Of a DNA stretch of 64,000 nucleotides, positions 1 through 44,304 are shown piece by piece. Each line of letters opens with the position of its first letter. The first letter of the stretch is position 1. Position numbers and translations under genes: made by a program. The notes under the pieces are model-generated. The model was not told where the DNA came from, ran no database searches, and was given only the letters and a program-made list of their open reading frames with translations. The stretch covers positions 1 to 64,000 of IMG/VR virus record IMGVR_UViG_3300009103_000015; one strand, written 5' to 3'. The DNA comes from a virus.

Positions 1-1143
1 GAATCATTAGCAAAAGAAGATATTCATTTTGGAATAAGCGATTACACTTCAGGTGGTAGTCCATCAGAACAACAAGATGCATTCAATAGTGCATTTGGTG
101 TAAGCACTCCAGAAGAAGAAGAACAGATAGAAGATTCCATTGATGATAAAATGAATCCAATCGAATCAGCATACTTTGATATTAAAAGTGAATATTGGGA
201 ATCGTTTATTGATGATCCAGTAAAGTTAGATGAATTTTTACAACGTGTTGAAAGTTTGAGAGCAGATGCAGAGCAAGCTGTCGCAACAATTCCAAGACGA
301 AGATCAGGTTTCTATACTCGCAGAAACTTTGACGAAGTGGAATGGCTTAACACTGTAATTAATGATATGCAAGGAATCATAAGACAAGCAGAACCAATGA
401 AGAATAACGGTTTATTTGAATCATTTCCAAGAGGTAATGTAGGCGAATCATTAGCAAGAGAAGATCAAATTCACACACAAGATGGTTGGTGGAGAAATGT
501 GCAAGATGTTGATTTTAACTTTGAATCATTACAGAAAGCAATAGCAGATATAGAATCTGCAATGAATGGTGCATCAACTTCAGAGATGATACAATTACAG
601 CAAGAATATGATTACTATAATGAACTTCTTGCAAAATTCACAGAAGATAAAAGTAATTTAGATAAATATGGTATTGTTAATCAAGACACACCAGAATATT
701 CAACTGCACCTTGGGGAATATACGAATCAAACGCAAAAGCAGTATGGAAATCTTATGAAATGGAAGATGAGTATGAAACTCAAATGCATGGACAAGGTTG
801 GAATACTGAAACAGATGAAGAAGAAGATGATCAATCTAAAGTATCACTGAACATAAATAGTGGAACTTTAACAGACAAACAAATAGAGACAGAAGAACAT
901 CATACTAAATCAGATAAAGATTCTACATCACCAGATGATGAAGGATTTTCAACTTCAAACATAGTATCAGGAAACTATGAAAAGGTAATTGGCTACAATC
1001 CTGATCCAAACCACAATCTAGGAGATCACAAATTGAAATCCAAGAAAGGAGAACGTCGTTCACAAGACAATCCAGCTAGCGAAACTCAAACATTTTATTC
1101 AAACATAATTGGTAAACTATCTGGCTTAGAAAGTGACGAATGA
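1..1143 (+). CDS. Acidic ES(K/L)AxE-motif protein 1, 5'-truncated (candidate internal head protein)
   Basis: Frame 1 is open from base 1 (ESLAKEDIHFG...) into the 151 ORF. D/E-rich; ESLAKE at 1, ESLARE at 445. Confidence 0.75.
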   Translation, partial: ESLAKEDIHFGISDYTSGGSPSEQQDAFNSAFGVSTPEEEEQIEDSIDDKMNPIESAYFDIKSEYWESFIDDPVKLDEFLQRVESLRADAEQAVATIPRRRSGFYTRRNFDEVEWLNTVINDMQGIIRQAEPMKNNGLFESFPRGNVGESLAREDQIHTQDGWWRNVQDVDFNFESLQKAIADIESAMNGASTSEMIQLQQEYDYYNELLAKFTEDKSNLDKYGIVNQDTPEYSTAPWGIYESNAKAVWKSYEMEDEYETQMHGQGWNTETDEEEDDQSKVSLNINSGTLTDKQIETEEHHTKSDKDSTSPDDEGFSTSNIVSGNYEKVIGYNPDPNHNLGDHKLKSKKGERRSQDNPASETQTFYSNIIGKLSGLESDE

Positions 1144-2720
1144 TGACCAGACAATGTCCAGAATGTTCAAGGGTTTTTGAAGACGAAGATACATTATTTG
1201 ACCACTTATTAGATACACATGGATATTCAATGGATCAAGCTGAAGATACTATTGATCTTTTGGATCTTTATGCCACACCTTCTGTAAATAAAGAATCAAA
1301 AGCAAAAGAAAGTATGGAAGATGAAGCTGGTCTTTGGTGGGATTCATTATCTATAAGCGATAGAGAAAATCTAATTGGTGGTGGTGCACAATCAGATTCT
1401 TGGCATTTAGATAAACATCTAAGTTGGAGTGAACTTCAAACAAGACCTAACTATGATCCAAGTCAACCTTTCTTTGATTCATCTACTACTGTTAATGATA
1501 TTCTCACAATCTATGTGTCAAGTTTCTATAAAGCACAAGGATTAGATGATGAACAATGGGATGAAACTGGTGGAGATTGGGATGGAAACATGAGACCAGA
1601 TTGGTCAGATACAGGTGGTCAATCAAATACTTGGTTTGGTTCAGTATTGAATCCTACATTAACTACAAGAAGTGGAAACATATTAAACTATGAATCAAAA
1701 GCAATAGAAGATGGATATTCAACAGCAAGAAGAATAATGAAACAACAAATTAGAGTTATGAGAGAAGACGGTGATACTGATGGTGCAGATGATCTTGAAT
1801 GGAAATTAGAAAATGGTTATTATGATGAATTTGGTGCAACTGGAACGCAGAATCCTGATCTTGCTGAATCCCATGCAATAGAAGTTTCATCAGAGGAAGA
1901 AGAAGTTGGTTCAGATCTATGGCAAGCTCTAGCAGAAGGAAATTTGTTAGGCGATTATGTTTTCGGTGGTATATTCAACTTTGAAATAACAATGCCTGAA
2001 TGGGCAACAGATCCACAGATAGATGTTGGTTCTATTGGTTGGTTTGAACTTTCAGATGCAGACAAACAAAATGTTGTTAATCATTTTGGTGGAGTAGATG
2101 GAATGAAAGAAAAACTATGTGATGAAGGTTGGAGTAGTTATTGTGAAGATGAAGATGGTTTTGAATCAAAAGCTAGAGAAGATAAATTAGACAAAGCACA
2201 ATTAGATATTGATGACGAAGAAGAATTTATGAATCAGGTAGATATAGCACAGAAATCAGATAATCAGAATCCATTGTTTGATATGGAAGCATTACAAAAG
2301 AAATATTCAATGTGTAATTCATGTATGGATAAAGCTTTCAAATCATTAACAAATGAATCACAAATGGCAGATGCAATGTATTCACAATGGCGTGGAACTG
2401 CAATAGGTGATGAAAGAAATTATGAGAATTGGGAAACTTTTGCATTAGCTAATGGTGTATCACAACAAGAAGCAATAGATACTTGGGAAAAATTGAATCC
2501 ATCATACGGATTTGAATCAAAAGCAATCGAAGAAATTGTTGATGATGATGGAATAAATGCAATTTGGAAATGTTCAATATGTGGAATATCTATAAGTATT
2601 CCTTCTGATTACATGGGAGATTCTGAAATACCAACACAACATCTAATGATTGATCATGGTATGACAAGAGATGAAGCTAATGATCTTGCAGAAAAAGAAA
2701 CAGATTATGGTGATTATTAA
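1140..2720 (+). CDS. Acidic modular protein 2 with N- and C-terminal C2H2-like fingers and five ESxAxE motifs
   Basis: CPEC..HLLDTH and CSIC..HLMIDH; ESKAKE, ESKAIE, ESHAIE, ESKARE, ESKAIE. Confidence 0.8.
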   Translation: MMTRQCPECSRVFEDEDTLFDHLLDTHGYSMDQAEDTIDLLDLYATPSVNKESKAKESMEDEAGLWWDSLSISDRENLIGGGAQSDSWHLDKHLSWSELQTRPNYDPSQPFFDSSTTVNDILTIYVSSFYKAQGLDDEQWDETGGDWDGNMRPDWSDTGGQSNTWFGSVLNPTLTTRSGNILNYESKAIEDGYSTARRIMKQQIRVMREDGDTDGADDLEWKLENGYYDEFGATGTQNPDLAESHAIEVSSEEEEVGSDLWQALAEGNLLGDYVFGGIFNFEITMPEWATDPQIDVGSIGWFELSDADKQNVVNHFGGVDGMKEKLCDEGWSSYCEDEDGFESKAREDKLDKAQLDIDDEEEFMNQVDIAQKSDNQNPLFDMEALQKKYSMCNSCMDKAFKSLTNESQMADAMYSQWRGTAIGDERNYENWETFALANGVSQQEAIDTWEKLNPSYGFESKAIEEIVDDDGINAIWKCSICGISISIPSDYMGDSEIPTQHLMIDHGMTRDEANDLAEKETDYGDY

Positions 2721-2722
2721 TC

Positions 2723-3955
2723 ATGGCAGATTTGAGAGACTTAGTTTATTCAGAATGGACTGATGGTTCACATTCAGCAAATCAAATGAATGAGATTGCA
2801 GATGTTTTGAATTTAGATTATGAAAATATGTCTATTGATGACTTAGATTATTTATTAGATGATGAATTAGAAGACATTAATCTTTTTACAGAAGATGAGG
2901 TAGAACAGATAGCACTTATACTCGGAGTGAAAGCAACAGAAGATTATGAAACTCCACAAGAATTAATAGTAGATGATGAAGAAGAAACAGGAATAATTGA
3001 TGCTGAAGATGTTGGTAGTGAAGATCCATTCAATGTCAAAGGTTTAACAGACAATCCATTATTTGATTATGAATCAAAATCAAAAGAAGTAAGAGATCCT
3101 CCACAACATTTACAAGATTTAATCCCAACGACAGGGACAGTTCAAGATTCTCATTTGAATCCAGAGTTAGAAAAATTAAGAATACTACTCAATCTTAATT
3201 ATGAAGTTAGTAATAATGGTGGAGATAATTGGCAATGGGGTGGTAATGATGAAGATCTAAATATAATCAATAATTTTGGTCTAAGTGCTGTTAGAGAATT
3301 ATACGAAACCCAAGTAGAGTTTGGAGAAACCGATGATGAAGAATTAGATGATTTAGTTAATGGAGAATTATTTGATAAAGCATTAGCAGAAGTTGAAGCT
3401 AAATTAGATGAACAGATTAGTTTAGCAGAACAAGAATATGAACAGAACAGACAGAAAGAACAGGTAGATGCTTTTGGTTTTTGGGGTAATGAATCTAAAG
3501 CAATAGAAGATTCAGCTTTGCCTGCTGGTTGGACACAAGATCAAGTTGATTTATTTTATGATGGTGGCGACATTGACGAAGAACCTAATGATGACGAAGC
3601 AGAACTCTATGATCTAATTAGAGATAGAGAAGATTCAAAAGAAACAGAACCTCTAACAATGCCAGTCGAAGAGATTCCAATAGAACCAATGTCTCCAGAA
3701 GAATTGAAAAAATACAAAGGCAAACTTGGTGGAGATGAATTAGGATATTCAGATGATATGAAAGATTATCAAGCAAAAAAAGAAGAAGAAGAAGATGAAG
3801 AAGAGGTAGAAGAAACAGGTGTTAGTTCTGATGAATACCCACAAGATAGAAAAGATAACACAGTAAACATTCCTTTTACAGAAGCACAGCTTTTGCAGAA
3901 AGGAAGTGAATCTTATAAAGTATTAGAAAATAATGCAAGCATAAGGTTTGAATAA
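2723..3955 (+). CDS. Acidic modular protein 3
   Basis: 410 aa, very D/E-rich; KATE, ESKSKE, ESKAIE, KGSE. Confidence 0.8.
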   Translation: MADLRDLVYSEWTDGSHSANQMNEIADVLNLDYENMSIDDLDYLLDDELEDINLFTEDEVEQIALILGVKATEDYETPQELIVDDEEETGIIDAEDVGSEDPFNVKGLTDNPLFDYESKSKEVRDPPQHLQDLIPTTGTVQDSHLNPELEKLRILLNLNYEVSNNGGDNWQWGGNDEDLNIINNFGLSAVRELYETQVEFGETDDEELDDLVNGELFDKALAEVEAKLDEQISLAEQEYEQNRQKEQVDAFGFWGNESKAIEDSALPAGWTQDQVDLFYDGGDIDEEPNDDEAELYDLIRDREDSKETEPLTMPVEEIPIEPMSPEELKKYKGKLGGDELGYSDDMKDYQAKKEEEEDEEEVEETGVSSDEYPQDRKDNTVNIPFTEAQLLQKGSESYKVLENNASIRFE

Positions 3956-3957
3956 AA

Positions 3958-5385
3958 TTGTTATCTGACGAATCAATAAATTATTGTCCAGAGTGTCAAA
4001 AATATTTTGATGACCCTGATGAATTAGAAGTTCATAAGAATGTAAAGCATGGTGGAAAACAGAATACTTTGTTTGAGCAATTAGTTCCACAATACTTAGA
4101 CCAACAGAATATTATGATTGAAGATCAAAGTTTTTCATTACCACCTCCTAGAAAACACGCAGATTATAATGAAGCAAAAGCAAATTGGGAAGGTATGTGG
4201 GAAGCTGAAAGAATTAAAGTTTTGAAAGATGCAATGTTAGATACAGAATACTGTGAATATTCTTTCTCTGAATTACCTGAAGATGTTCAGAATAAAATCT
4301 ATTTCACTTTACAGAAATATGCTACCACTAGAAACGCATCTGGTTTTGAAAATGAGCAGAATATAACAGATGATGGAGTAGATTCTACTTCTGTTGATGG
4401 TCAATTTGATGATCATGATTCTGTAAAAGATAACGAGTTTGATTTTGGTGTTCTACCTTTAGCAAGTATTGGATTAGATGTTGCAAAGAGTTTAGAACCA
4501 TCTATTAGACTTAAGGCAAAACAGTATCTGAAACAAGATGAAGCAATTCCATTAGATTGTCCACAATGTAAAAAATTCAGGGGAAGACCACATGAACTTT
4601 ACATTCATCTAAGAACTCAAGGATTTGATAATGAAAATGCAAAACGTATAACAGATAGACAAATTAGTGATTGGAAAAGAGAACAGATAGACAAGATACA
4701 GAAACAAAACTCTGCTGATCAGATTAAACAAAAGAAAGGACTTCTTTCTGGTTTATTTGAATCTAAATCAGATGAATACATAATGCAATGGAATGGATTA
4801 GAAGACTTAGCAAACAGTTTAACTTCTGAAATGTTAGATAATTTATCTTACAAAGAATTACAAAGTCTAATGATTCAGGTAGAAAGAAACATAGAATTGA
4901 TAAAAGATTCATTGAATGAACCAGAGCATTTAGGAATACAGAATGATAACAGTAAAGCAAGATTAATTCTATCACAACTTGAGTTAGGAGTTGCAGAAAT
5001 AGAAAGTAAATTCTTTGATGCTAAGAACAGAGAAGATAAGAGAGAATACTTTTCTCCATTAGAAGATTACATGAATAATCCACGTTATACTTTTGAATCC
5101 ATGTTAAAGTCAGAAATTCTAAGTCCTTATGAAATCAGTAATAGAAATGGAGAGGTTATTTCACAACACGTTGAGACTGAAGAAGAAGTTCAAGAAATAA
5201 TTAACAGATATCAATCAGAATATGTTGAGAAACACTATGGTAGTCAAGATGCGATTATAGTTAGAGATTCAATAGGAAATGATGTAAGTAGAATGTTTAA
5301 GAACGCAATTCAAGAATGGGAAACTACTTCCATAGAAAATATTGATAAGCAATTAGAATATACAGAAAGAGGGTTAGGAATTTGA
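3958..5385 (+). CDS. Acidic modular protein 4 with C2H2-like fingers
   Basis: CPECQKYF..HKNVKH, CPQC..HELYIH; ESKSDE; TTG start. Confidence 0.78.
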   Translation: MLSDESINYCPECQKYFDDPDELEVHKNVKHGGKQNTLFEQLVPQYLDQQNIMIEDQSFSLPPPRKHADYNEAKANWEGMWEAERIKVLKDAMLDTEYCEYSFSELPEDVQNKIYFTLQKYATTRNASGFENEQNITDDGVDSTSVDGQFDDHDSVKDNEFDFGVLPLASIGLDVAKSLEPSIRLKAKQYLKQDEAIPLDCPQCKKFRGRPHELYIHLRTQGFDNENAKRITDRQISDWKREQIDKIQKQNSADQIKQKKGLLSGLFESKSDEYIMQWNGLEDLANSLTSEMLDNLSYKELQSLMIQVERNIELIKDSLNEPEHLGIQNDNSKARLILSQLELGVAEIESKFFDAKNREDKREYFSPLEDYMNNPRYTFESMLKSEILSPYEISNRNGEVISQHVETEEEVQEIINRYQSEYVEKHYGSQDAIIVRDSIGNDVSRMFKNAIQEWETTSIENIDKQLEYTERGLGI

Positions 5386-7829
5386 AAATATCACAAGAAA
5401 AAATGAATGATAGGATAAACTCTTGGAATAGAATGGATTCCAATATAAGATCAGATACTCTAAGACAAGCTGGAGTTCCTGAAGACTTTATTGATCCAGT
5501 AAGAAGATTAGACTTTTGGGAGATAGAATCAAACTATCCAGAGATAGCAGAATGGCTAATAGAAACTCAAGGTTTGTTTAACGAATCTCCATTTGAAAGT
5601 AGTTTAGATGAATGGCAAAAGAAAACTCAAAACATTTCAATCAATGATCCAAATCAGTATTGGGATCTAACAGATATCATTGGAGAAAGAAAAGCAAGTG
5701 AATATCTCTTACCTGAAGCAATAGATGATGAAATAGATCATCATCCATCTGGTGTTGCATTTACTTGCAATCTATGTGGAGAAGATTTAGCTGACGATGA
5801 TAATGGAGATGGGGATATTAGACCTGAAGATAAAGATTCAATATTAGCTCATTTTCGTGACCAACATGGAATAACAGAATCAAAAGCAAGTGAAGATGAC
5901 AAATCAGATTGGGTATTGAATACAGGACTTCCTCATGTTAAGTATGATGCAGATAATCCTATTCCAGAAGATATGTTAGGACAGGCATTCAAACTTGCTA
6001 ATCAAACTGACAGAGAGGGTTTAGAATGTCCACGATGTCATGAAAAAACAATGTTCATGTTAATTCTACCAGAAATGTTATGTTCTAACTGTGGTCTAAG
6101 ATATTCTCTTGAATCTTTTGCAAAAGAAATACTAGGATTCGATGAATTACAAACTGAAGATTTAACTTATGAAGAAATTGTAGAATTAACAAAAGGAATA
6201 CCAATAGATGAGATACCTGAAAAGTTAAGACACGCTGGTATGAAATTACAATTTGATAAAGATTTCAAAGCAGGGGATAATCCTTACGTTGGAAATTGGG
6301 AAAACTTTTCAAAAGAACGTGAATTATATTTACCAGATCATTTTGATTTAGACGAACAGAGATTAGAAGATATTGATGATGGTTATGCAACAGCAGATCT
6401 AATTAAGTGTAATATTTGTGGAATGAAATTTGATTTGGAAGATTCTAATGGAGAAAGAGATGCAATACGTCATTTGAAAGATCATAATATTACAGAATCA
6501 GGTTTCAACTTTGAAGATATAGTAGAAGGTGAACCAATGAAAGAAACAGGTAAACTAAGAGAAAGATTTCCTAGAGGATTTGTAAACTTTAATAAAAAAA
6601 GAGAAGAAGAAATCCAACAAGAAATAAGAGATGCTGGTGGAATAGACGGTATCATTGCAAGATCTCAAGTAAAACCAATAGATTCCTATCAAGATTGGCT
6701 TAGAAAAAATGCAAAGAATAATTCATGGAATAAAATTGGAAGGGAAGGTTCATCACAAATAGACATACTATACGCAGAGAAAGAATCAATAGAGCAAGAA
6801 ATCAATCAATTAGAAAATGATTCAATTAGAATTGGATTGGTTGGAAGCGATCAAGAATTAATAGCAATAGATGATGAGATAATAAAAAAGCAACAAGAGT
6901 TAGAAAATATAGAAAAAGAAATAGATAATTTTGCAGGGGAGACTGATTGGAAACAATTCACTAAGGATTTTTTTTTACATCAAGAAGACGACATACATGA
7001 CTTATTAGAAAGACAGAGAAATAACGATAAGAATCTAAAGGACTACATTAGAAAAGAACAGGTTGAATCAACAGATAGTGAAGAAGAAAAGAAATTCCTA
7101 GATGATTATGGTAAGAATGTAAATTGGGATGAATCTAGTTTTTGGGATTTATTCAAAGACAACACAAAAGAAGTAGATCTATGGGATAATAATGATTACA
7201 ATAAATACAAACAAAAGTTTCTAAAGAAATATCCTAACTCAACAGAAGATGATTTTAAGAAACAAATACAGGGAAGTGATTACTATTCAAAAGAAGAATT
7301 GAATTGGTCAAGACAAAGACCATTGAATGATATTGAAAAAGAAATCTATCTGAAACGTGATGGAGATGATAGATATTTTTGGGAGAGAGATTTAGGAAGT
7401 TCAGATCCTTTCAATCCAAATAAGAAATCAGATGATGAATCAAAATCAAACGAAGGTTGGGAAGTTGAAGAAGAATTGTATCAACAATTATTAGATGGCG
7501 AAATTGGTTGGCATGAATTAACTCCTGAAATGAAAGCTGACATTAACAATTACATTGAAAAAAACAATCTAAGTGTAGAAACAAAATCAACCGAAGGTGG
7601 TTATGGAAGTGGAAAGAATAGACATGGATTCGGTCACAAGAAATGGATGAAAGATGCAGAGATTAATGATAGTATAATTAAATCAGAAGATATGAATAAA
7701 GATGCAATTCCATTAGAAGAATACACATATCATTCTAGAAAAGAAACTGATCATCACAAATCAAATCCAGAGATACGAAGGTTGAAAGATAGAATACGAA
7801 AGTTAGAACGCCAACTTGATGACGAATGA
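5382..7829 (+). CDS. Acidic modular protein 5 with Zn-finger modules and coiled coil
   Basis: CNLC..HFRDQH, CPRC..CSNC, CNIC..HLKDH; KASE, ESKASE, ESFAKE, ESKSNE, ETKSTE. Confidence 0.8.
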   Translation: MKISQEKMNDRINSWNRMDSNIRSDTLRQAGVPEDFIDPVRRLDFWEIESNYPEIAEWLIETQGLFNESPFESSLDEWQKKTQNISINDPNQYWDLTDIIGERKASEYLLPEAIDDEIDHHPSGVAFTCNLCGEDLADDDNGDGDIRPEDKDSILAHFRDQHGITESKASEDDKSDWVLNTGLPHVKYDADNPIPEDMLGQAFKLANQTDREGLECPRCHEKTMFMLILPEMLCSNCGLRYSLESFAKEILGFDELQTEDLTYEEIVELTKGIPIDEIPEKLRHAGMKLQFDKDFKAGDNPYVGNWENFSKERELYLPDHFDLDEQRLEDIDDGYATADLIKCNICGMKFDLEDSNGERDAIRHLKDHNITESGFNFEDIVEGEPMKETGKLRERFPRGFVNFNKKREEEIQQEIRDAGGIDGIIARSQVKPIDSYQDWLRKNAKNNSWNKIGREGSSQIDILYAEKESIEQEINQLENDSIRIGLVGSDQELIAIDDEIIKKQQELENIEKEIDNFAGETDWKQFTKDFFLHQEDDIHDLLERQRNNDKNLKDYIRKEQVESTDSEEEKKFLDDYGKNVNWDESSFWDLFKDNTKEVDLWDNNDYNKYKQKFLKKYPNSTEDDFKKQIQGSDYYSKEELNWSRQRPLNDIEKEIYLKRDGDDRYFWERDLGSSDPFNPNKKSDDESKSNEGWEVEEELYQQLLDGEIGWHELTPEMKADINNYIEKNNLSVETKSTEGGYGSGKNRHGFGHKKWMKDAEINDSIIKSEDMNKDAIPLEEYTYHSRKETDHHKSNPEIRRLKDRIRKLERQLDDE

Positions 7830-8670: not shown

Positions 8671-9270
8671 ATGGTCAAAATACCAAAACCTGAAATGTTA
8701 GATCCAGAATCTCTTAAACCTTATGAACAGAATATCAAAGTTCATACTGAATCTCAAGTAGAAGGTATAATGAACAGCATGAAGAAATTTGGATTCTATG
8801 CTCCTATCGTAGTAGATGGAAAGAAGAATGTCATAATAGGACATGGAAGGTTAGAAGCTTCTAAGAGATTAGGTCTGAAAGAAGTTCCTGTTGTTAAACA
8901 GAAAAACATTTCAGAAGCAGATGCAAAGGCACTAAGAATTATTGATAATAGAATATCAGAAGTTGATTGGGATATTGATAACTTGAAATTAGAAATGGAT
9001 GATTTGAAAGAGTTTAACTTTGATGATTTCCATGTAGATTTAGAAGATCTATACACACCTAAATTACAAGACATTAACATTGACATAGATACTACTGACG
9101 AAAAGATGAAAGCATATCTTGAAGGTAGTGTTAAACAAATTACTTTGATATTCAGCAACGAAGAGTTTGAAAGAACAATATCACGAATGGAAAAGGCAGG
9201 TCAAGAATTAAAAGCTGAATCAAATACTGAAGTTCTGTTAAAACTACTAGATCATTACGAATCTCAATAG
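8671..9270 (+). CDS. ParB/Srx N-terminal domain protein
   Basis: LKPYEQN..H...SMKKFGF.APIVVD...IIGHGRLEA.K.LGLKEVPV...DNRISE. Confidence 0.85.
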   Translation: MVKIPKPEMLDPESLKPYEQNIKVHTESQVEGIMNSMKKFGFYAPIVVDGKKNVIIGHGRLEASKRLGLKEVPVVKQKNISEADAKALRIIDNRISEVDWDIDNLKLEMDDLKEFNFDDFHVDLEDLYTPKLQDINIDIDTTDEKMKAYLEGSVKQITLIFSNEEFERTISRMEKAGQELKAESNTEVLLKLLDHYESQ

Positions 9271-9303
9271 AATACTTAATAACATTATAAGACGATTAAA
9301 TTT

Positions 9304-10320
9304 ATGAAACTTAAAGAAATTCAACTGGAAAGAAATGAAATTACTAACTGGAAAGAATATGTAAAGCGACCAGCTAGAGATGATGACTATGAAACAATGT
9401 TAACAGAATCTTGCAAACTTATGGAAGGCGAAAAATTAATTGGTGTCTATATTGTATTACCTAAAACAAAAGAAACTGAATTATTGAGAGAAGTTGTGAG
9501 AAGAATAAATTATAATAGAAACAAAAGAACCTCTGGTTTGACTACAAATTCAAAGGTATTTGGATATCTTCCTAGAGAGATAATTAGAAAAGATTATTGT
9601 TCTTCTGCTGATTTAGCTACAACGAATGCAAAATATCATGCAGTTATTACACAGTTCGGAGAAACTCTAACTAAGAATTACAAAGAAAGTTGTCCAGAGA
9701 TGTTTGAATATCATAATGGAATAACAAAAGAAAAAATAAAAAAGGAATGGGTTATCAATAATACTCCATACACTTCAGGTATAATTAACAAAGATTCTCA
9801 ACTTAATTATCATTGGGATAGAGGAAACTACAAGAAAGTATTTTCAAACATGGTTGCTTTCAAAAACAAATGTGAAGGTGGACATTTAGCAATACCTGAA
9901 TACAATATTGGTTTAGAAATAGCAGATCTATCATTAACTTTCTTTGCTGGTCAAGAAGTTTTACATGGTGTCACTCCATTCAGAAATAATCAAGGTGGTT
10001 ATAGATACACTCTAGTTTATTACACAATGAATCAGATGTGGAAATGTGAAGATGTTTCAAAAGAAGTTGCTAGAATAAGAGAAAGAAAAACTCAACGTGA
10101 AAAGAACAGAGTGTTAAGATTACAGGGAAAGTTATCTGAAGAAGATGATCCAATAGGACAGCTTAGACAGAAAGTGAAAGATCCAAAACAATATATGAAT
10201 TATAATATATTTGCAGAATTAGGTATAGATAGAAAGTATCTAGGAGTTCCATTCACAAGGCTTCCAAAATACATACAAGAAAAATTAGTTCATTACAAAC
10301 AGAAGGAAAGAAAAGAATAA
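9304..10320 (+). CDS. TET/JBP-like 2-oxoglutarate/Fe(II) dioxygenase
   Basis: HxD (YHWDRGN), GG.L.IPEY, distal His (VLHGVTP) and 2OG-binding Arg (YRYTLVYY); adjacent to ParB as in viral TET/JBP loci. Confidence 0.8.
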   Translation: MKLKEIQLERNEITNWKEYVKRPARDDDYETMLTESCKLMEGEKLIGVYIVLPKTKETELLREVVRRINYNRNKRTSGLTTNSKVFGYLPREIIRKDYCSSADLATTNAKYHAVITQFGETLTKNYKESCPEMFEYHNGITKEKIKKEWVINNTPYTSGIINKDSQLNYHWDRGNYKKVFSNMVAFKNKCEGGHLAIPEYNIGLEIADLSLTFFAGQEVLHGVTPFRNNQGGYRYTLVYYTMNQMWKCEDVSKEVARIRERKTQREKNRVLRLQGKLSEEDDPIGQLRQKVKDPKQYMNYNIFAELGIDRKYLGVPFTRLPKYIQEKLVHYKQKERKE

Positions 10321-10935: not shown

Positions 10936-11191
10936 AGCTCCAACGTGTGGAGTTTGCTTAGCAACAGCAGAAGGAGAACATCAATGGATTCCATCACATC
11001 TAAAGAATGATGATAGATTTACTTTTACCTGTAAATGTAAATGTCATAATGGTAAAGAAGAATTTCAAGAAGCACATAGAAGTAAAGCTTACAACATAAA
11101 ACATTGTATCTACTGTGGGAAGAAAGATTTTAAAGACTTTGATGAGGTATTAGATCATGTCAGAAGAGAATGTAAAAAAAGAAACGTGTGA
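10919..11191 (+). CDS. CxCxCH plus C2HC Zn-finger protein
   Basis: CGVC..H..CKCKCH and CIYC..HVRREC. Confidence 0.6.
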   Translation: MNVMVEAPTCGVCLATAEGEHQWIPSHLKNDDRFTFTCKCKCHNGKEEFQEAHRSKAYNIKHCIYCGKKDFKDFDEVLDHVRRECKKRNV

Positions 11192-11291
11192 GAGATGTGG
11201 TAATGAAATGGATAATCTAAGTGCCTGTCACTTGAGATGTTCAAACTGTGGTGTTGAATACGATTGTTCAGATAAGGGAACTACATGGTAA
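11157..11291 (+). CDS. 44-aa Nitrosopumilus-like CxxCG Zn-ribbon microprotein (not in ORF track)
   Basis: MSEENVKKETCERCGNEMDNLSACHLRCSNCGVEYDCSDKGTTW; recalled as resembling a thaumarchaeal small-protein family. Confidence 0.65.
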   Translation: MSEENVKKETCERCGNEMDNLSACHLRCSNCGVEYDCSDKGTTW

Positions 11292-11842
11292 AAATAATTG
11301 CTATCGGTGGAGTAGCTGGAACTGGAAAGACAAAGATAATTCAAGACTTTATCAAGAAATCAAAAGATTGGAAGGTATCAAAGCCTGAAAAGACATTGGA
11401 TTCTATTTACAGTGAAAAAATGAATTGTTTTGTTCTAGGAAAATATGATCCATTCTATGAAGGTGAAGGTTATGCACAGGGAACTGATAGATTAAGTATG
11501 TCAGTTCAACCACACGCTAAAAAATTCTTCAAGAATCTAAATTCAAACTGTATTTTTGAAGGAGATAGGTTATACAATCAAAAGATGTTAGAGTTTCTAC
11601 TAAATGAAACCAATCACGAATGTTTATTCCTAATTCTAGACTGTAAATCAGATATGCTAATTCAAAGATACAGAAAAAGAAATAGTGAACAGTCTGCTAA
11701 ATTCATTCAAGGTAGATTTACAAAGTATAACAACATAATACGCAACATGAAATCAAACATAACAATAGTAAAGAATGAAACAGAATCAGATTCCAAGAAG
11801 ATTTCTAAGATAATCAACAACTTTATATTGAATGTCAACTAA
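11285..11842 (+). CDS. P-loop nucleotide kinase of the viral DNA-hypermodification type (5-hmU DNA kinase-like)
   Basis: Walker A GGVAGTGKT; LGKY....GTDRLSMSVQP; IFEGDRL. Confidence 0.7.
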   Translation: MVKIIAIGGVAGTGKTKIIQDFIKKSKDWKVSKPEKTLDSIYSEKMNCFVLGKYDPFYEGEGYAQGTDRLSMSVQPHAKKFFKNLNSNCIFEGDRLYNQKMLEFLLNETNHECLFLILDCKSDMLIQRYRKRNSEQSAKFIQGRFTKYNNIIRNMKSNITIVKNETESDSKKISKIINNFILNVN

Positions 11843-11914
11843 TACAATGCATAGAGATCCCTCCGTCAATATACTCTCATTCCGAAAGTAATGGGCGAAC
11901 AAACCATTACCAAA

Positions 11915-21779: not shown

Positions 21780-22658
21780 TTGATATACATGGTAATTCTT
21801 TCAAAGAAAGATGGAATCACAGATATACCTTCTTGTGTTATAACAGATACCTATGCAAATGAAGGATTAGTTTACAATGAAGGAGTTCAATTTTCAACAG
21901 ACTTAGAAATAGATGAATGGAAACATAAATGGAATCCTGAAAAAAGAGAGGGAAAAGATTACGGATATGTCACATACAAATTATTGAAAGGTAGAGAATC
22001 AAAATCATTTCCAAATTCTAGTTTTGAGCATAAAGCATTAACCGTAGCATTGAGAACATGGGGATTGAGAACAAAGAATATTAGATTCAAAAGAATTTAC
22101 AATGAAAATGAAGTTGCAGATATTGAAGTAAAATTTGAAACTAGGGAAGAGAATGATTATTTCAGAGATAAACCAACTGTTCTAGCATACGCATATTTTC
22201 CTAATGGAAAAAAGATTGGTGGAGATATGGTATTCAATGATTCTATTTGGTGGTCAGAAGATGGAGAATCAGTAAATGCACATGAATTAGATCCTGATAA
22301 TTATCCAGCAGATACTAAAACCCAAATAAAGACATACAATCTAGTTCACGTAATGATACACGAAGCTGGTCACGCATTAGGCTTGAAACATCAAACCAAA
22401 TGTAAAGAATGTGTAATGTATCCTTATTATTCTGGAAAGGTTGTTCTTCATGATGATGGAGATAGAATGTTTAGAGTTCATGGTTCAGAATACCCATTGA
22501 CCAAAAAAGCCTACGATTATTATGTAAAGAATGGATATACTCCAGAACCAATAGAAATGCCACACGATGTTGATAGAATACAAAGTTTCTATGGAAAAAG
22601 AACCTTAAGTCAAAGAATTATTGATTATTTTAGACGTAGAAATGAAAGGAAGTATTAA
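21780..22658 (+). CDS. Matrixin-family (M10) zinc metallopeptidase, no signal peptide
   Basis: ADIEVKF, VLAYAYFP..IGGD, HEAGHALGLKH, Met-turn VMYPYY, DVDRIQSFYG. Confidence 0.9.
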   Translation: MIYMVILSKKDGITDIPSCVITDTYANEGLVYNEGVQFSTDLEIDEWKHKWNPEKREGKDYGYVTYKLLKGRESKSFPNSSFEHKALTVALRTWGLRTKNIRFKRIYNENEVADIEVKFETREENDYFRDKPTVLAYAYFPNGKKIGGDMVFNDSIWWSEDGESVNAHELDPDNYPADTKTQIKTYNLVHVMIHEAGHALGLKHQTKCKECVMYPYYSGKVVLHDDGDRMFRVHGSEYPLTKKAYDYYVKNGYTPEPIEMPHDVDRIQSFYGKRTLSQRIIDYFRRRNERKY

Positions 22659-38144: not shown

Positions 38145-38495
38145 ATGGCAACTTATGAAGATGCAGTTATCAGAATCGGAAATAAAGGAACTGTAATAGA
38201 TGTGAAAATGTATTCAGTATCTGCCGATGGAAATACTCAAACTGCATTAGATCTATCTGCTGGAAATTCATATCAGATTGAGTTCAAAAGAAAAGATTCT
38301 ACAACTCAAGTTGTCACAGCAACCGTAAAGAATGGAAGTGGAACAGATGGTATTCTCACATATACTGACACAGGTGGAGCTGTCTTTGCTCACACTAGTG
38401 CAAAAAGAGGTAGATGGGAAGTAAGAGGAATCATTAATTATGCTTCAGGCAACGTTTTTAAAGGAAGCTGGGAAGGTTTTACTGTTGGCGAATAG
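38145..38495 (+). CDS. BppU-N-like Ig-fold virion protein
   Basis: GTVIDV...ALDLS...IEFKRKD...DGILTYT...GRWEV. Confidence 0.5.
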   Translation: MATYEDAVIRIGNKGTVIDVKMYSVSADGNTQTALDLSAGNSYQIEFKRKDSTTQVVTATVKNGSGTDGILTYTDTGGAVFAHTSAKRGRWEVRGIINYASGNVFKGSWEGFTVGE

Positions 38496-39165
38496 AGAAC
38501 CAGATGTTGAAATTCGAGGTGGTAAAGTTGTTAAAAGAAAATATGAATCAAAAGAAGATTTTGATAATAGAGATAATGAAGAAAAAGTTGTAAGTGGAAT
38601 TAATCCAAAATATATTCAAGGTAATAGAAAATACAGTCAAGAAGAACAAACAAAGAAAGCTTTAGCTGACTTGAAATCAATAGGAACTGAAAGAATAAAA
38701 AAAATTACCTGTATGTGTTGTGAGAAAACATTTGGAGATCATTCTCATAAAGACTTGTTAAGATGTGTTCAATTATTACAAAATACTAATTGTGCATGGG
38801 GTTATGAATTAGCTGAATACAAAGCAATAGAAAAAATGCAAATAGAAGAACTAAGATCAAAACAAACTTCTGAAATGCAAGAAGATAAAGGAGATATGGA
38901 AAATCCTGAATGGAAAGATGTAGATATGTCACAGGAAGGAGAGAAAGAAATGCTTGATAAAATAAAAGGGGATATGGATTCTCATGAATCAAATATAGAG
39001 AAAATTGACATGGATGAATTAGATGAGAAAGGTTCAACAATGTTTGAAACTAAAGATGAAGATGGAAATAATGTAGTAGTAGAAGCTATCGATCCAGAAT
39101 CAGATTTAGGTAAGAAAATACTTAAAGAAGAGAGAGAGAAGAAGAAACATGGCAAATCTAACTGA
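38485..39165 (+). CDS. Hypothetical protein with CxxC-H-C Zn site
   Basis: CMCCEKTFGDH...LLRC; probable TTG start at 38485. Confidence 0.55.
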   Translation: MANREPDVEIRGGKVVKRKYESKEDFDNRDNEEKVVSGINPKYIQGNRKYSQEEQTKKALADLKSIGTERIKKITCMCCEKTFGDHSHKDLLRCVQLLQNTNCAWGYELAEYKAIEKMQIEELRSKQTSEMQEDKGDMENPEWKDVDMSQEGEKEMLDKIKGDMDSHESNIEKIDMDELDEKGSTMFETKDEDGNNVVVEAIDPESDLGKKILKEEREKKKHGKSN

Positions 39166-39300: not shown

Positions 39301-41337
39301 ATGGGTATTGTAAAAGCATTTGAAACTGCATTTCAAACTTTCAATAATTATCTAAGTAATATTACAAGAAAGAGAAACGCATCAATAGTCGGTCCGTCAA
39401 AACAGATTACAGGTGAATATCCACAGGTAGATTTTTCAAAGTTATATGATTATTATCATCATTGGGATCAGGTCAAAAAAGCAATAGATACAATGCATCA
39501 GAAATTTATGGGTGCTGGAATTAGAATTGAAATTGATGATGATTATTTACAAGAGTTTGTAGAGAAATGGATGGAAGTAGTAAACTTCCAAAAGAAGATG
39601 TCAGATTTCTTCTTGAATGTTATCGTCACAGGTAATGGAGTTCTAGAATTACAATACACAGATGAAAACAAACTTGGAAATATTGAAGTTATTCCAATGC
39701 AAACTATATGGAGAGTTTTCAGAGATGAATTTGGAAATGAAATCAAAATCGTTCAGAATATAGACGGTGTTTTCAAAGAATTAGATCCAGCAAACTATCT
39801 TCATTGGACAATCAATAATCCAGATAGACAGGCATTTGGAAAATCAGAATTTTTCACATTGGCAAGTCCAAGAACTGTTTCTGCAAAATTAGATCCAATC
39901 ACTGGAGAAGCAGTAAATGATGAACGTTCACTAATGGCTTTGTTAGATGCTCAAGCAGAACTTCAAAACGCAGAAGTTGAAATTAAAAAGTTAATGGCAA
40001 AACCTAGAATATTTGCTTCATTCCCAGCAATGCCACAAGATCAATTAAACAAATTACAAAAAGAATTACAAGATCCAAATACATCACAAACCATTTGGGC
40101 ATTTGATAGAGAAGCAAAAATGGTAGAAGCAAACGTATCTCCACAAGGAAAGTATAATGATTATGCACAGAACGTAGATGATCATATTGATATTGGAACT
40201 GGATTTGCTAGTAAAGTAATTAGAAGTCCACAGGGATTCAGTTATTCTTCAAGTCAAACTCCATTCGATGTCATGGATCAAAGAATGAATGATATGCAAT
40301 CTGATGCTAGAGAAATGATTCGTGATGATATACTAAGACCATTATTCAACTCTTGGGGATTCGAGGACTTTGATGATTATGATATTACAATTTCATTCAT
40401 GCCAAGTGTAAGAAGACTTGCTATGGAAGATATTAGAAATTTACCTTTAGATGCTGTATCTCCAGAAGAGAAAAGAGAACTTCTAAAGAACTTACATATT
40501 CCACTTAATGATGATTTGTGGGAAGAGTTTAATGCTAAGCAACAAGCAACAGGTTCGTTGACAGGCATTCAAGATTCAGGTCAAGGACAAGGACAGAAAG
40601 TTCCATTGACAAGTCCAAAGTCTGCAATATCTCCTATCGCTGGAAACCCAAGAACTCAAAGTGATGGTTCAACTAACTTAGATAAACCAGAACAAGCAGA
40701 TGCTCCAACTCCAAGTAGAACTGATGATAGACCTGTTCCAACAATCAAAAAGAAAACAGAATCATTTGATAATCATATACTAAGTAATCCAAAAGAATTT
40801 GAAGCTTATATTAAGAAAACAATCAGTGAGAGTATTAAGAAATCTATGGAAGATATTTCAACTCCTAGAAATAATTCATCTTGGAGAGGAGATGAAAAAC
40901 CAAAACCAGATCAGGAGAAAAAGAAATATGAATTGAGTCCTAAGATAAACACTAGTGATCTATATGTTTCAGGTGGTCTTAATGATGAAGATGGAAAACC
41001 ATCATTAACAGATCCTACAATAGAACAACATCTAAAAGATCAGTTAGGAAAACCAGATTCAATAATTCCAAAAGAAGAGAAAGAGAAGAAGGGTATAGAT
41101 GGAAAAACAATAGCATACAGAGGTAAGAACGCACCAAATCCAAACGACAATTATGACATAACTGGTCCTATTGATCCAAAGAGAGAAAAGACTGCTCCAG
41201 CTAATCCAGTTGGACAAGTTCCACAGAGTATGATAAAGAGAATTGAGAAAGAAATCCTAGACGGTGATCCAGAAAAGATTGACAAGTTGAGATCTCTATT
41301 GGAGACCGATGTTGGAGAAGAAGAAGAAAGAAGATAA
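39301..41337 (+). CDS. Portal protein with long disordered C-terminal extension
   Basis: VKKAID, IVTGNGVLE, YLHW....AFGKS, upstream of the capsid gene; ~270-aa P/K/D/E-rich tail. Confidence 0.8.
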   Translation: MGIVKAFETAFQTFNNYLSNITRKRNASIVGPSKQITGEYPQVDFSKLYDYYHHWDQVKKAIDTMHQKFMGAGIRIEIDDDYLQEFVEKWMEVVNFQKKMSDFFLNVIVTGNGVLELQYTDENKLGNIEVIPMQTIWRVFRDEFGNEIKIVQNIDGVFKELDPANYLHWTINNPDRQAFGKSEFFTLASPRTVSAKLDPITGEAVNDERSLMALLDAQAELQNAEVEIKKLMAKPRIFASFPAMPQDQLNKLQKELQDPNTSQTIWAFDREAKMVEANVSPQGKYNDYAQNVDDHIDIGTGFASKVIRSPQGFSYSSSQTPFDVMDQRMNDMQSDAREMIRDDILRPLFNSWGFEDFDDYDITISFMPSVRRLAMEDIRNLPLDAVSPEEKRELLKNLHIPLNDDLWEEFNAKQQATGSLTGIQDSGQGQGQKVPLTSPKSAISPIAGNPRTQSDGSTNLDKPEQADAPTPSRTDDRPVPTIKKKTESFDNHILSNPKEFEAYIKKTISESIKKSMEDISTPRNNSSWRGDEKPKPDQEKKKYELSPKINTSDLYVSGGLNDEDGKPSLTDPTIEQHLKDQLGKPDSIIPKEEKEKKGIDGKTIAYRGKNAPNPNDNYDITGPIDPKREKTAPANPVGQVPQSMIKRIEKEILDGDPEKIDKLRSLLETDVGEEEERR

Positions 41338-41553: not shown

Positions 41554-44304
41554 ATGACTTTGAAAAAACGTGTCACAGAATACTTTGATGATGAAGACCT
41601 GAAAAGTATTAACTCTAAAGAAGTGAATCCAGATGAGAAAGAATGTGAGAGTTGTGGTTTCAAAACAGCAGATAATGAAGAATTTGAAGACCATTTACAA
41701 TCTCATAAGGATATTTCAGATGAGTTTTGGAATAACAATTATAATAATTTTGTAAATTATCAACTAGCAAATCTTAAGAAGAAAACAGGAACTGAAAGTG
41801 TTGATCTTCTCATGGGAAAGATTTCAGCACAAGAAGGTAAGAAAATCAAAGGAACTCTAGCTTATGCTGGTGTTTCATTAAACAACAGATTATATCTTCC
41901 AGAACAATTAGCAAAAGGCGATGGTCAAACATTACCACTTATAGTAAATCATGCTTCAACTTCAGGTGCTGAAGGAGAACTTCATAGACTTCCAGATACA
42001 TTTAGAGAAGGATTAGTAAATGGAAAAGAAATGAAAGTAGGAACTGTTAAACTTAATTGGGATCCAGAAGCATTAACATTGTATTATTCAGGAGAAGTAG
42101 ATGATGAGTTTTTCCAAAAAGAAATTGGAGAAGCTGATATGGCAGTATCTCTAGGAATGTATTATGATGCAAACTCGCCTCAAGTTTGTGATAAAGAATG
42201 TTATACAGTCATAAAAGGTGGAGAATTTTCTGAAGTTTCATTGGTCTATCATGCAGGTTTTCCAATAGCAACTATTGAAGCAAATGAAGCTGTTCTAAGA
42301 AAGAAAGGTATGGAAGCATTAAAGTTTTCAAGAACTGAAGATCCATTACCTTGTTCAAAGAAATCTGAAGAAGCACTCGGTCCTCACAGTCCAGAATATG
42401 ATCAGGTCATCAATGATCCTAATGAAAATCCAACAACTTCAGGTAGAGGAGTAGGAAATATTCAACCTGAAACTAGAGTAGCTCAAAGAAGAATGGATGA
42501 AAATGAAATTGGAGTCACATCATCTAATGATTTGGAAAAATCAAAAGAAGAAGTTTCTGGTCCACCAACTTCTACAACACCAACAGTTATTCGTGAAAAA
42601 AATACATATAAAGAGAGTTTAAATAGTAAGAACAAGATTATGTCTGACGAAATTGACAAAAACGAAATATCAGCCGAACCAAAAGCTGAAAACACAGAAA
42701 CCGAAGAAGAAGAAATAAAATCTAAAGATGCAGAATCACAAGCATCTGGAACTTTTTCTGATGGTGGCGGTGCTCAATGCGAAGACCAAGGTAAAATTTG
42801 GGATGCAGAGACCGAGAAATGTGTTGATGTAAACGGTTCAGTTCAAAAGGAAGTCCCTTCTGGCGTTAAGACTAACGTTTCAGATGGTGGCAAGTCAGGA
42901 GAAAACAGAAGAGTTAGACCAACATCTTATCGTAGAAGTTCTGTTCCAAACGCAGATATTGCTTCAGAAAAACGAAGAGTAAAAGAATATTACAAGAAAT
43001 TGGATAGACTTGAAGCTCTACGTGGTATGAAAGTATCAGAAGCAAGAATCAAAGCAAAAGAACAATACTTGAAAGAAAAACGATTAGATAGTTTAATTCG
43101 TGGTGCTAAAGAAAGTGCAAGACCAAAAGCTATTGTAAGTCGCAAGACAGCAAAAGCTGGTGAAGCATTTGGCAAAGTAAAAGCTGACGAGAAAGAAGTC
43201 ACTGGTCCAGCAAGATGGTATCAAGCCATCAAGAACGAAGAGAACGTTCCAAATTCATTTATCTGGCACGTTAACAAACAAGGAATCTTCGAGAACAGTG
43301 ATCAACGTTTCATCAAATCTTACGATGCTAACGAAAACACCCAATATGCTCCTTTGACATCAGACCAAAAGAAAGCTTCCGAAGCAGTGACTGGTCCAGC
43401 AGGTAATGATTTCATGAGAATCATGTCCGAGCAGGTTCTAGTATTGCCAAACGGAAAAGTAGTCACACCAATTCGTCAATTCTGTGAAACCAAAGTGTTG
43501 CCAACAGGCACAAAAGAAGCATTCTTCTATGACTTTGGTGCAGTAGGATTCAGCGACATCACTGAAGATGGTTCAACAGTTGTTGGAGAATCTGCAGTTG
43601 TTGTTAGATCTGCTGGTGGTCCAGCAGGTGCTAGAGGAACAAAACTCATTCTAGGTTATACTCAAATTGAGGAAAGCCCAATCGATTTGATTGCAAGTGC
43701 AAACAGATCATTCGCATTAGAATCAGTAAACGATGAATCAAAAGAAGTTGTAAACGTATCATACAACACAGATTCAGGTTCCGCAGGCGATGCTACAAAC
43801 AGAAAAGCAGTTGGTGGTGGTTCAAAAGCAAACAGATGGGTATCTCACAGTGGTTCACAAATCACAGCAGATGCATCTGGTCTTGGAAACTTAACTTTCG
43901 CTGGATTAGTTTCAGCAAAAGGAGTTATCGAAGATGAAGGTCTTGATCCTAGCAACTTAGTCACATACACAACAGGAAAAGCAATTCGTGATCTTGTATT
44001 TGATCCAGATCTCGATAGTTTCATATCCTTTAGTCGTCCAGCAATCATTACAGAAGCAACTGTCGAAAGAATCGCAGGAACTAATGTAGTAAGATCTTCT
44101 GCTTTAGCAAGTGGATCACAATCTGGATCTAGCAGATCCGTAATGTTTGTTCCAAACATTGCATTCGGCTTGATTTCAGGAAGAGATCTAACTATGGAAG
44201 CACAAAGAAGAAATGAGCTCCAATCAATTTTCTTGACTGGAACACAGAGGATTGCAGGATTCACAAAGAACGTGGAAGCAACCTGTCGTATATCTCACTT
44301 ATAG
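41554..44304 (+). CDS. Fused C2H2 finger - prohead protease - scaffold - HK97-fold major capsid protein
   Basis: CESC..HLQSH; protease-like motifs GVSLNNRLY, LIVNH, VSLG, FSEVSLV; charged linker; C-terminal ~306 aa with ERIAGTNVV and LISGRDLTMEAQR...TQRIAG. Confidence 0.8.
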   Translation: MTLKKRVTEYFDDEDLKSINSKEVNPDEKECESCGFKTADNEEFEDHLQSHKDISDEFWNNNYNNFVNYQLANLKKKTGTESVDLLMGKISAQEGKKIKGTLAYAGVSLNNRLYLPEQLAKGDGQTLPLIVNHASTSGAEGELHRLPDTFREGLVNGKEMKVGTVKLNWDPEALTLYYSGEVDDEFFQKEIGEADMAVSLGMYYDANSPQVCDKECYTVIKGGEFSEVSLVYHAGFPIATIEANEAVLRKKGMEALKFSRTEDPLPCSKKSEEALGPHSPEYDQVINDPNENPTTSGRGVGNIQPETRVAQRRMDENEIGVTSSNDLEKSKEEVSGPPTSTTPTVIREKNTYKESLNSKNKIMSDEIDKNEISAEPKAENTETEEEEIKSKDAESQASGTFSDGGGAQCEDQGKIWDAETEKCVDVNGSVQKEVPSGVKTNVSDGGKSGENRRVRPTSYRRSSVPNADIASEKRRVKEYYKKLDRLEALRGMKVSEARIKAKEQYLKEKRLDSLIRGAKESARPKAIVSRKTAKAGEAFGKVKADEKEVTGPARWYQAIKNEENVPNSFIWHVNKQGIFENSDQRFIKSYDANENTQYAPLTSDQKKASEAVTGPAGNDFMRIMSEQVLVLPNGKVVTPIRQFCETKVLPTGTKEAFFYDFGAVGFSDITEDGSTVVGESAVVVRSAGGPAGARGTKLILGYTQIEESPIDLIASANRSFALESVNDESKEVVNVSYNTDSGSAGDATNRKAVGGGSKANRWVSHSGSQITADASGLGNLTFAGLVSAKGVIEDEGLDPSNLVTYTTGKAIRDLVFDPDLDSFISFSRPAIITEATVERIAGTNVVRSSALASGSQSGSSRSVMFVPNIAFGLISGRDLTMEAQRRNELQSIFLTGTQRIAGFTKNVEATCRISHL

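Follow-up and report, generated by a model that had tools for sequence, protein, structure and literature searches.

Modular acidic polyproteins of a probably archaeal virus as candidate substrates of its prohead protease

The window analysed here is the first 64 kb (64,000 nucleotides) of the 77,876-bp IMG/VR virus record IMGVR_UViG_3300009103_000015, and it opens with five tightly packed open reading frames (ORFs) that encode acidic polyproteins, 2801 residues in total and about one tenth of the genome. In these polyproteins, small and mutually independent modules with a median length of ~84 aa, many of which are zinc fingers, are joined by a six-residue linker, E-S-[K/Y]-[A/S/T]-x-E. All large genes lie on the + strand, and among them are a portal gene and, after it, the gene of a capsid precursor that carries a protease domain and the major capsid protein in one chain (Table 1). 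The record has a 119-bp direct repeat at both ends (window 1-119 = genome 77758-77876); the genome is thus complete at ~77.76 kb, and the terminal repeat indicates that it is circular or circularly permuted. The first polyprotein ORF is therefore not truncated at base 1. It runs across the terminal-repeat junction from its true start at genome position 77173 and has a full length of 575 aa.

Table 1 Polyprotein genes, head genes and candidate cleavage sites in the window (a slash marks the predicted cut; numbers before "aa" alone are lengths, those after it are residues of the capsid precursor)
Feature	Position	Strand	Description
Polyprotein 1	1..1143	+	3' part in window; linkers ESLAKE 1-18, ESLARE 445-462
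Polyprotein 2	1140..2720	+	526 aa, six modules, N-terminal C2H2 finger; 18-nt linkers at 1293, 1692, 1866, 2163, 2514
Polyprotein 3	2723..3955	+	410 aa; linkers at 3071, 3491
Polyprotein 4	3958..5385	+	475 aa; N-terminal C2H2 finger (Pfam zf-C2H2, E 4.8e-6); linker at 4759
Polyprotein 5	5382..7829	+	815 aa; linkers at 5877, 6111, 7437, 7578; two internal C2H2-like fingers
Module family F0	1881..2180	+	~99 aa, flanked by ESHAIE and ESKARE
Portal protein	39301..41337	+	weak SPP1/Mu portal profile matches; KSME in C-terminal part
Capsid precursor	41554..44304	+	916 aa: C2H2 finger, protease, linker, scaffold-like segment, major capsid protein
Prohead protease domain	41785..42333	+	aa 78-260; H133, S199, H233 invariant
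Candidate cleavage site TGTE/S	41785..41796	+	aa 78-81, before protease domain; KK-x-[GAS]-x-E in 20/22 homologues
Candidate cleavage site KGME/A	42304..42315	+	aa 251-254, C-terminal end of protease domain
Candidate cleavage sites KAGE/A, KADE/K	43153..43191	+	aa 534-537 and aa 543-546, scaffold-like segment
Candidate maturation site KASE/AVTG	43372..43383	+	aa 607-610; K-x-x-[AG]-x-E/[AT] in 21/22 homologues

A previous sequence-only reading of this stretch had described the five ORFs as acidic and had listed 14 copies of E-[ST]-[KLHF]-[AS]-x-E in them. We indeed found all 14 copies in frame at the positions given in Table 1, in proteins with 19-29% Asp plus Glu. Enrichment over shuffled sequence, which that reading had named as a check, was evident, as the 14 copies compare with a mean of 0.09 and a maximum of 2 when each protein was shuffled 5000 times. 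The motif is absent from the other 17,615 residues of the window (0.32 expected), and the form ESK[AS]xE alone occurs nine times in the five polyprotein ORFs against 0.02 expected. The shorter core K-A-x-E was counted nine times in the polyproteins (0.9 expected), four times in the capsid precursor (0.6 expected) and nine times in the other 20,763 residues (6.4 expected).

To describe the constraint on the linker, we number its residues P6 to P1 towards the predicted cut. Alignments of 25-75% identity gave positional identities of 88% at P6, 83% at P5, 60% at P4, 91% at P3, 33% at P2 and 91% at P1, compared with 57% for background columns; four positions (P6, P5, P3 and P1) stand out as conserved, and P2 varies freely. 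In all 57 sites from 18 proteins, P3 was Ala, Ser or Thr and P1 was Glu, and P4 alternates between Lys, Tyr, Leu, His and Phe. The same pattern was seen in the alignment of module family F0, where the upstream linker takes the forms ESHAIE, ESKANE, SEKASE, EQRANE and KRKAKE with Ala at P3 and Glu at P1 constant. The motif is thereby supported as a protein-level linker between unrelated modules. At the level of sequence, its small P3, free P2 and P1 Glu also support a fit to the A-x-E or S/A/G-x-E rule of the prohead proteases of giant phages (PMC10052503). Other accounts of the motif were rejected. Judged by inspection and general knowledge, the linker carries the signatures of neither 2A-like ribosomal skipping nor intein-type self-cleavage, and repeat-domain homology was ruled out, the modules being unrelated to one another.

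Homology searches revealed that these modules travel independently. When 5.8 billion proteins were searched, homologues of the second polyprotein ORF (ORF2) covered just 9-32% of its length, at 39-94% identity, and a search of 1.84 billion cluster representatives returned 17 proteins only, mostly as single-module matches. The linker abounds in the homologous sequences as well, in forms such as ESKA[TSN]E and ESYAKE, and one protein of 1259 aa has ~14 copies. Two further candidates, P0145 and P0148, were discarded as unrelated repetitive proteins with weak phmmer matches. Across 28 related polyproteins (20,371 aa; the metagenomic ones are labelled P0122-P0142) we counted 101 linkers, the internal modules having a median length of 84 aa, and 22 of the 70 module families recur, in differing orders. 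One metagenomic protein, P0129, corresponds to ORF3 with one module of ORF2 (58 aa) added precisely at the second linker of ORF3, where it has a linker on either side. Where alignments reached 45% identity or more, 54% of the internal ends of homology fell within 8 residues of a linker, compared with 14% for random positions (maximum 22% in 2000 trials). Module swapping at the motif in related viruses, which the sequence-only reading had suggested looking for, is thus borne out by shared single modules, by breakpoints at the linker and by recurring families.

The most widely shuffled family is F0, which has 10 distinct neighbour contexts and often retains precisely the same length. In a structure model of F0 with its flanks, the helical core has a predicted local distance difference test (pLDDT) score of 80-90; each of the two linkers falls entirely or for the most part in stretches with pLDDT <50, as expected of an exposed joint around a folded core. 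Foldseek returned no fold match for F0. More generally, Pfam and PHROGs assigned no function to any polyprotein, and in the 15 polyproteins covered Pfam recognised no domains other than zinc fingers of the C2H2 and DnaJ types.

The arrangement recurs in related viral genomes. Single-protein queries with ORF2 or the capsid precursor found no matches among viral contigs, nor did the F0 module, which matched three metagenome contigs of 1.2-1.5 kb; the relatives came from an alignment-based scan only. They include four IMG/VR contigs (71-98 kb) with capsid proteins 53-54% identical, each of which carries three acidic ORFs of 541-1444 aa in one 4.5-kb cluster ~30 kb downstream of the capsid gene. 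The linker DNA pattern has six matches per relative contig, all on the gene strand and within the acidic cluster, compared with 0-1 for the reversed pattern used as control.

We then considered the protease that could act on these linkers. The capsid precursor (916 aa) matched no Pfam family (including S77, S78 and U35) and no PHROG family at E <= 0.01, and a sequence search of the PDB with its profile gave nothing meaningful; with no curated sequence family to match, its protease domain is placed at the fold level only. The AlphaFold2 model of the domain has a pLDDT of 84. The top Foldseek matches of the model are herpesvirus proteases and T4 gp21 (probability 0.92-0.99), and the best PDB match in VIA-align is T4 gp21 (5jbl; Z 9.0, 118 residues aligned, root mean square deviation 3.1), followed by herpesvirus assemblins at Z 6-7.7. 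The model thus supports a T4 gp21 or assemblin fold for the domain. His133, Ser199 and His233, in the order His...Ser...His, are invariant in 23 sequences and are candidate catalytic residues. The corresponding protease of the provirus Nvie-Pro1 (FR725450.1) has been called chymotrypsin-like (PMC6563490). Its gene product aligns to the capsid precursor from residue 91, and the domain here models as T4 gp21/assemblin-like, so that the chymotrypsin-like assignment may need a second look.

In related viruses, the protease and the scaffold-capsid parts are encoded by adjacent separate ORFs. One relative, IMGVR_UViG_3300025167_000008 (hereafter L001), has an extra 290-aa ORF between the two (10975-11847), which the other three relatives do not have and which may be a mobile insertion. 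The ORF before the protease gene is ~1400 aa in the relatives (3924-8123 in L001; 3963-8150 in a second contig, L002), twice the size of the window's 678-aa portal, and it opens with FRRKA[GS]E/AVP, another candidate protease site.

Candidate sites of the same type cluster in the capsid precursor. The sequence-only reading had listed KGME, KSEE, KSKE, KSGE, KAKE, KAGE, KADE and KASE there; together with KGGE this makes nine copies of K[ASG]xE against 1.7 expected, a number reached in 0 of 5000 shuffles. Outside the polyproteins and the capsid precursor, K[ASG]xE is merely slightly over expectation, and the KSME copy pointed out in the portal was located at residues 514-517. We scored site conservation over 22 homologues of the capsid precursor (47-90% identity). 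Five [GAS]-x-E sites separate the finger, the protease, the linker segment, the scaffold and the capsid protein, of which three are kept in 20-21 of the 22 homologues and two in part. At the site that follows the C-terminal helix of the protease, [GAS]-x-E/[AS] is found in 11 of the 22, the closer homologues with a protease domain, and the others end differently. The second site of the scaffold-like segment has the near-invariant residues A544 and E546 and reads K-x-S-A-x-E in most homologues. A cut at the last site, KKASE, would leave 306 residues, as had been claimed, and the predicted 306-aa capsid protein corresponds to 43384-44301. When a linker matrix built from polyprotein sites in other genomes was restricted to the P4-P1 core, the capsid precursor, which makes up 4.2% of residues, provided four of the top 15 non-polyprotein matches (~0.6 expected). 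The second-best non-polyprotein match of the linker matrix is EYKAIE in a 241-aa acidic protein encoded directly upstream of the portal (38440-39165), which, from its sequence, may be a further protease substrate.

Two further observations connect the polyproteins with the prohead. First, a 26-28-aa peptide, YEVDVDE[YL]IKTGxP...LPKDKRxY, is common to the N-terminal extension of the protease ORF of L001 (8573-10771) and to five polyproteins (P0125, P0136, P0138, P0141 and P0142), at 66-81% identity. In the polyproteins this peptide is often placed at the very C-terminus, and the genome of the window lacks it; it may represent a binding or targeting tag. The L001 extension also holds KKKASE and then a DnaJ-type zinc finger, a module type found in the polyproteins. 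Second, nine of the 28 polyproteins have an N-terminal C2H2 finger, and of the genome's 96 other ORFs the capsid precursor alone has one. The conserved KK-x-G-x-E site comes after the finger of the capsid precursor, which thus resembles a cargo module attached to the protease. These sequence features hint that the same pool of modules has been attached to a protein that is certain to reside in the procapsid. Only the three closest homologues of the capsid precursor (74-100% identity) have its finger (41644-41706).

Taken together, the best-supported explanation, which we consider reasonably probable, is that the five ORFs encode cargo polyproteins that are cut by the viral prohead protease. 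The linker fits the likely cutting rule of the virus's own maturation protease, and the polyproteins are therefore probably cut inside the capsid. In this mechanism, the chains would be built into the procapsid, where the serine protease of T4 gp21 fold that is part of the capsid precursor would cut after the last Glu of each linker, following the same small-x-Glu rule by which protease, scaffold and capsid protein would be freed. The five chains would thereby become ~19 separate small acidic proteins, which may stay in the head, perhaps entering the host with the DNA, or exit like scaffold fragments. The 18-nt linker doubles as a joint for cassette exchange between genes and between viruses. 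That the ORFs are head-packaged polyproteins cut by the protease was also the proposal of the sequence-only reading, and it is supported in part: a linker between unrelated modules and its selective constraint, cassette shuffling, agreement with the small-x-Glu rule, the protease fold and the conserved sites of the capsid precursor are all observed in sequence or model. Its further point, that polyproteins and capsid precursor have the same motif, held less well than stated. We infer the packaging of the polyproteins in proheads or virions, their cutting, and any host role or ejection as effectors. A more far-reaching picture, in which a lineage of marine archaeal tailed viruses runs a cassette system whose bead-end linker is both capsid-protease site and recombination joint, so that ~20 small and rapidly changeable capsid-loaded proteins enter the host with the DNA, is put forward tentatively and with somewhat less than even confidence.

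Several observations weigh against cutting by the prohead protease, and we describe them together with the alternatives they bear on. The K-A-x-E core is common to polyproteins and capsid precursor, but when all of P6-P1 is used, the matrix derived from polyprotein sites fails to pick out the sites of the capsid precursor, which account for one of its top 15 matches. E-S at P6-P5 is confined to the polyproteins and absent from the capsid-precursor sites, so that the full linker is not simply a repeated capsid site. A few K-A-x-E copies are found in unlikely head proteins, for example RadA, and the polyprotein genes are ~35 kb away from the head genes. The missing E-S and the distance would also suit a linker that is cut by some other protease or in the cytoplasm, with the polyproteins left unpackaged. 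The enzyme could then be a host protease or the viral M10 metalloprotease, a matrixin whose gene is indeed present (21780-22658; Pfam E 1.8e-23), upstream of the structural genes. However, matrixins select mainly a hydrophobic P1', and at P1' the linkers are mostly followed by Asp, Gly, Ser or Glu. The recognised residues, Glu at P1 and a small one at P3, lie on the non-prime side, as documented for prohead proteases of the T4 fold, and in relatives the protease ORF itself carries modules from the same pool. We therefore regard cutting by another enzyme as very unlikely.

Codon usage in the linker also counts against a purely peptide-level explanation. The linker Glu codons are GAA in 78 of 78 cases, compared with 89-90% expected (all window copies from 1293 to 7595 plus the sequences L017, L018 and L024-L026), and the P5 Ser codons are TCN in 27 of 27 cases, compared with 58-72% expected. 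This uniformity of the DNA beyond what the peptide needs, which also exceeds the codon bias of the ORFs concerned, leaves room for a role at the nucleic-acid level. Together with the homology breakpoints at the linker, it would be in accordance with a linker that is never cut, being either a flexible joint kept as a binding peptide or mainly a DNA recombination joint (GAA TCA AAA GCA NNN GAA) by which cassette shuffling is driven. The wobble bases of the linker Ser and Ala codons, however, track genome usage; combined with a free P2, a P4 that switches between residues and a fixed P3 and P1, this is the pattern of peptide recognition rather than of a DNA site. The codon uniformity is most simply put down to gene conversion between linkers and to the exchange of cassettes at the 18-nt joint, and the linker may have a separate DNA- or RNA-level role. 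Peptide cleavage and a DNA-joint role can coexist, and an uncut linker appears unlikely to us.

The last point on this side is that no recognisable effector or enzymatic domain was found in any module. This would be readily understood if the polyproteins were expendable core or scaffold of the procapsid, whose protease-cut acidic fragments exit the capsid and play no role in the host. The acidic composition and the many cutting sites per chain are in line with such a function, and multiple cleavage of propeptides with fragments leaving the head has been published (PMC10052503). However, the capsid precursor already has its own scaffold-like segment, and many modules are discrete zinc-finger folds, kept at 50-90% identity across quite different contexts, whereas filler needs no conserved, exchangeable cassettes. 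In the same genome pair, the ratio of nonsynonymous to synonymous substitution rates is 0.22-0.50 for the polyprotein genes compared with 0.09-0.14 for portal, capsid and a neighbouring structural gene, so that the polyprotein genes are under purifying selection, yet evolve faster than the head genes. It is thus rather unlikely that the polyproteins are expendable scaffold, and we favour cargo that is cut by the prohead protease.

With regard to the host, just one relative of the capsid precursor has a name, the 'protease/major capsid protein' of Nvie-Pro1, a Nitrososphaera provirus (34% identity). A recombinase of the Rad51/RadA type is encoded in the genome (Pfam E 1e-72), and no tRNA genes were found in it. 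A scan of prokaryote genomes returned one match in an unclassified archaeal metagenome-assembled genome (MAG) and one in a Flavobacteriaceae MAG, which do not settle the host; the latter is probably a binning error. The host is likely an archaeon and probably a marine ammonia oxidiser. Following the polyprotein block, the window also encodes a ParB N-terminal domain protein and then a TET/JBP dioxygenase (Pfam E 9e-11) at 8671-10320.

To our knowledge, nothing has been reported on the capsid contents of tailed viruses of ammonia-oxidising archaea or on how they take over the host. If the proposed mechanism is true, the linker provides a simple sequence rule by which capsid cargo could be found directly in metagenomes. 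The exact ends of ~19 mature peptides per virus would become predictable, and an anonymous block of genes would become testable. Glu-specific prohead proteolysis of internal proteins, so far a matter of T4-like and giant bacteriophages, would extend to archaeal viruses, and polyprotein strategies would reach beyond RNA viruses and large eukaryotic DNA viruses.

Full-text literature searches turned up no account of polyproteins like these in tailed viruses of archaea or bacteria, and no isolate or virion proteome of this virus group was found in the literature. It seems fairly likely that the system is a variant, in an archaeal virus, of protease-processed internal head proteins or of polyvalent proteins. 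In phage T4, the internal proteins IPI-III, Alt, gp22, gp67 and gp68 are acidic core proteins or cargo taken up into the prohead, where gp21 cleaves them after Glu. The protease there has the same fold, and 5jbl is the best structural match of the domain described here. T4 sites, however, read L/I-x-E, and a short N-terminal targeting sequence is carried by separate small genes. The P3 residue of the polyproteins is instead Ala or Ser, not Leu or Ile, and no such targeting sequence was identified in them.

A protease fused to the major capsid protein has been described for the thaumarchaeal proviruses Nvie-Pro1 and NCAV2-Pro1, as is found here; polyproteins and cleavage motifs are not described for them (PMC6563490). 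Polyvalent proteins, known from phages and conjugative elements (Iyer et al. 2017), are mosaic proteins proposed to be packaged, processed by peptidases and injected, and assemblin-like peptidases are mentioned among them (PMC5512222). They are fast-evolving, rapidly reshuffled chains of multiple modules, as are the polyproteins of this virus. Unlike the latter, they are defined by known enzymatic and anti-defence domains and often have a peptidase within the chain, whereas the chains here consist of small anonymous modules, contain neither a peptidase nor any known effector domain and have each joint marked by an explicit linker. The account of polyvalent proteins concerns bacterial elements (PMC5512222).

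The phiKZ-like giant phages (phiKZ gp175, SPN3US gp245) likewise have a protease of the T4 gp21 fold, a small-x-Glu rule and many head substrates. SPN3US gp245 cuts after A-X-E and strips propeptides from nine head proteins, long propeptides being cut several times (PMC10052503). Each substrate of the phiKZ-like phages is one protein with an N-terminal propeptide, whereas the substrates proposed here are chains of up to six or more exchangeable modules. Compared with these phages, the virus described here is small (78 kb) and probably archaeal, and its cleavage is predicted from sequence, at a six-residue linker that marks the end of each module.

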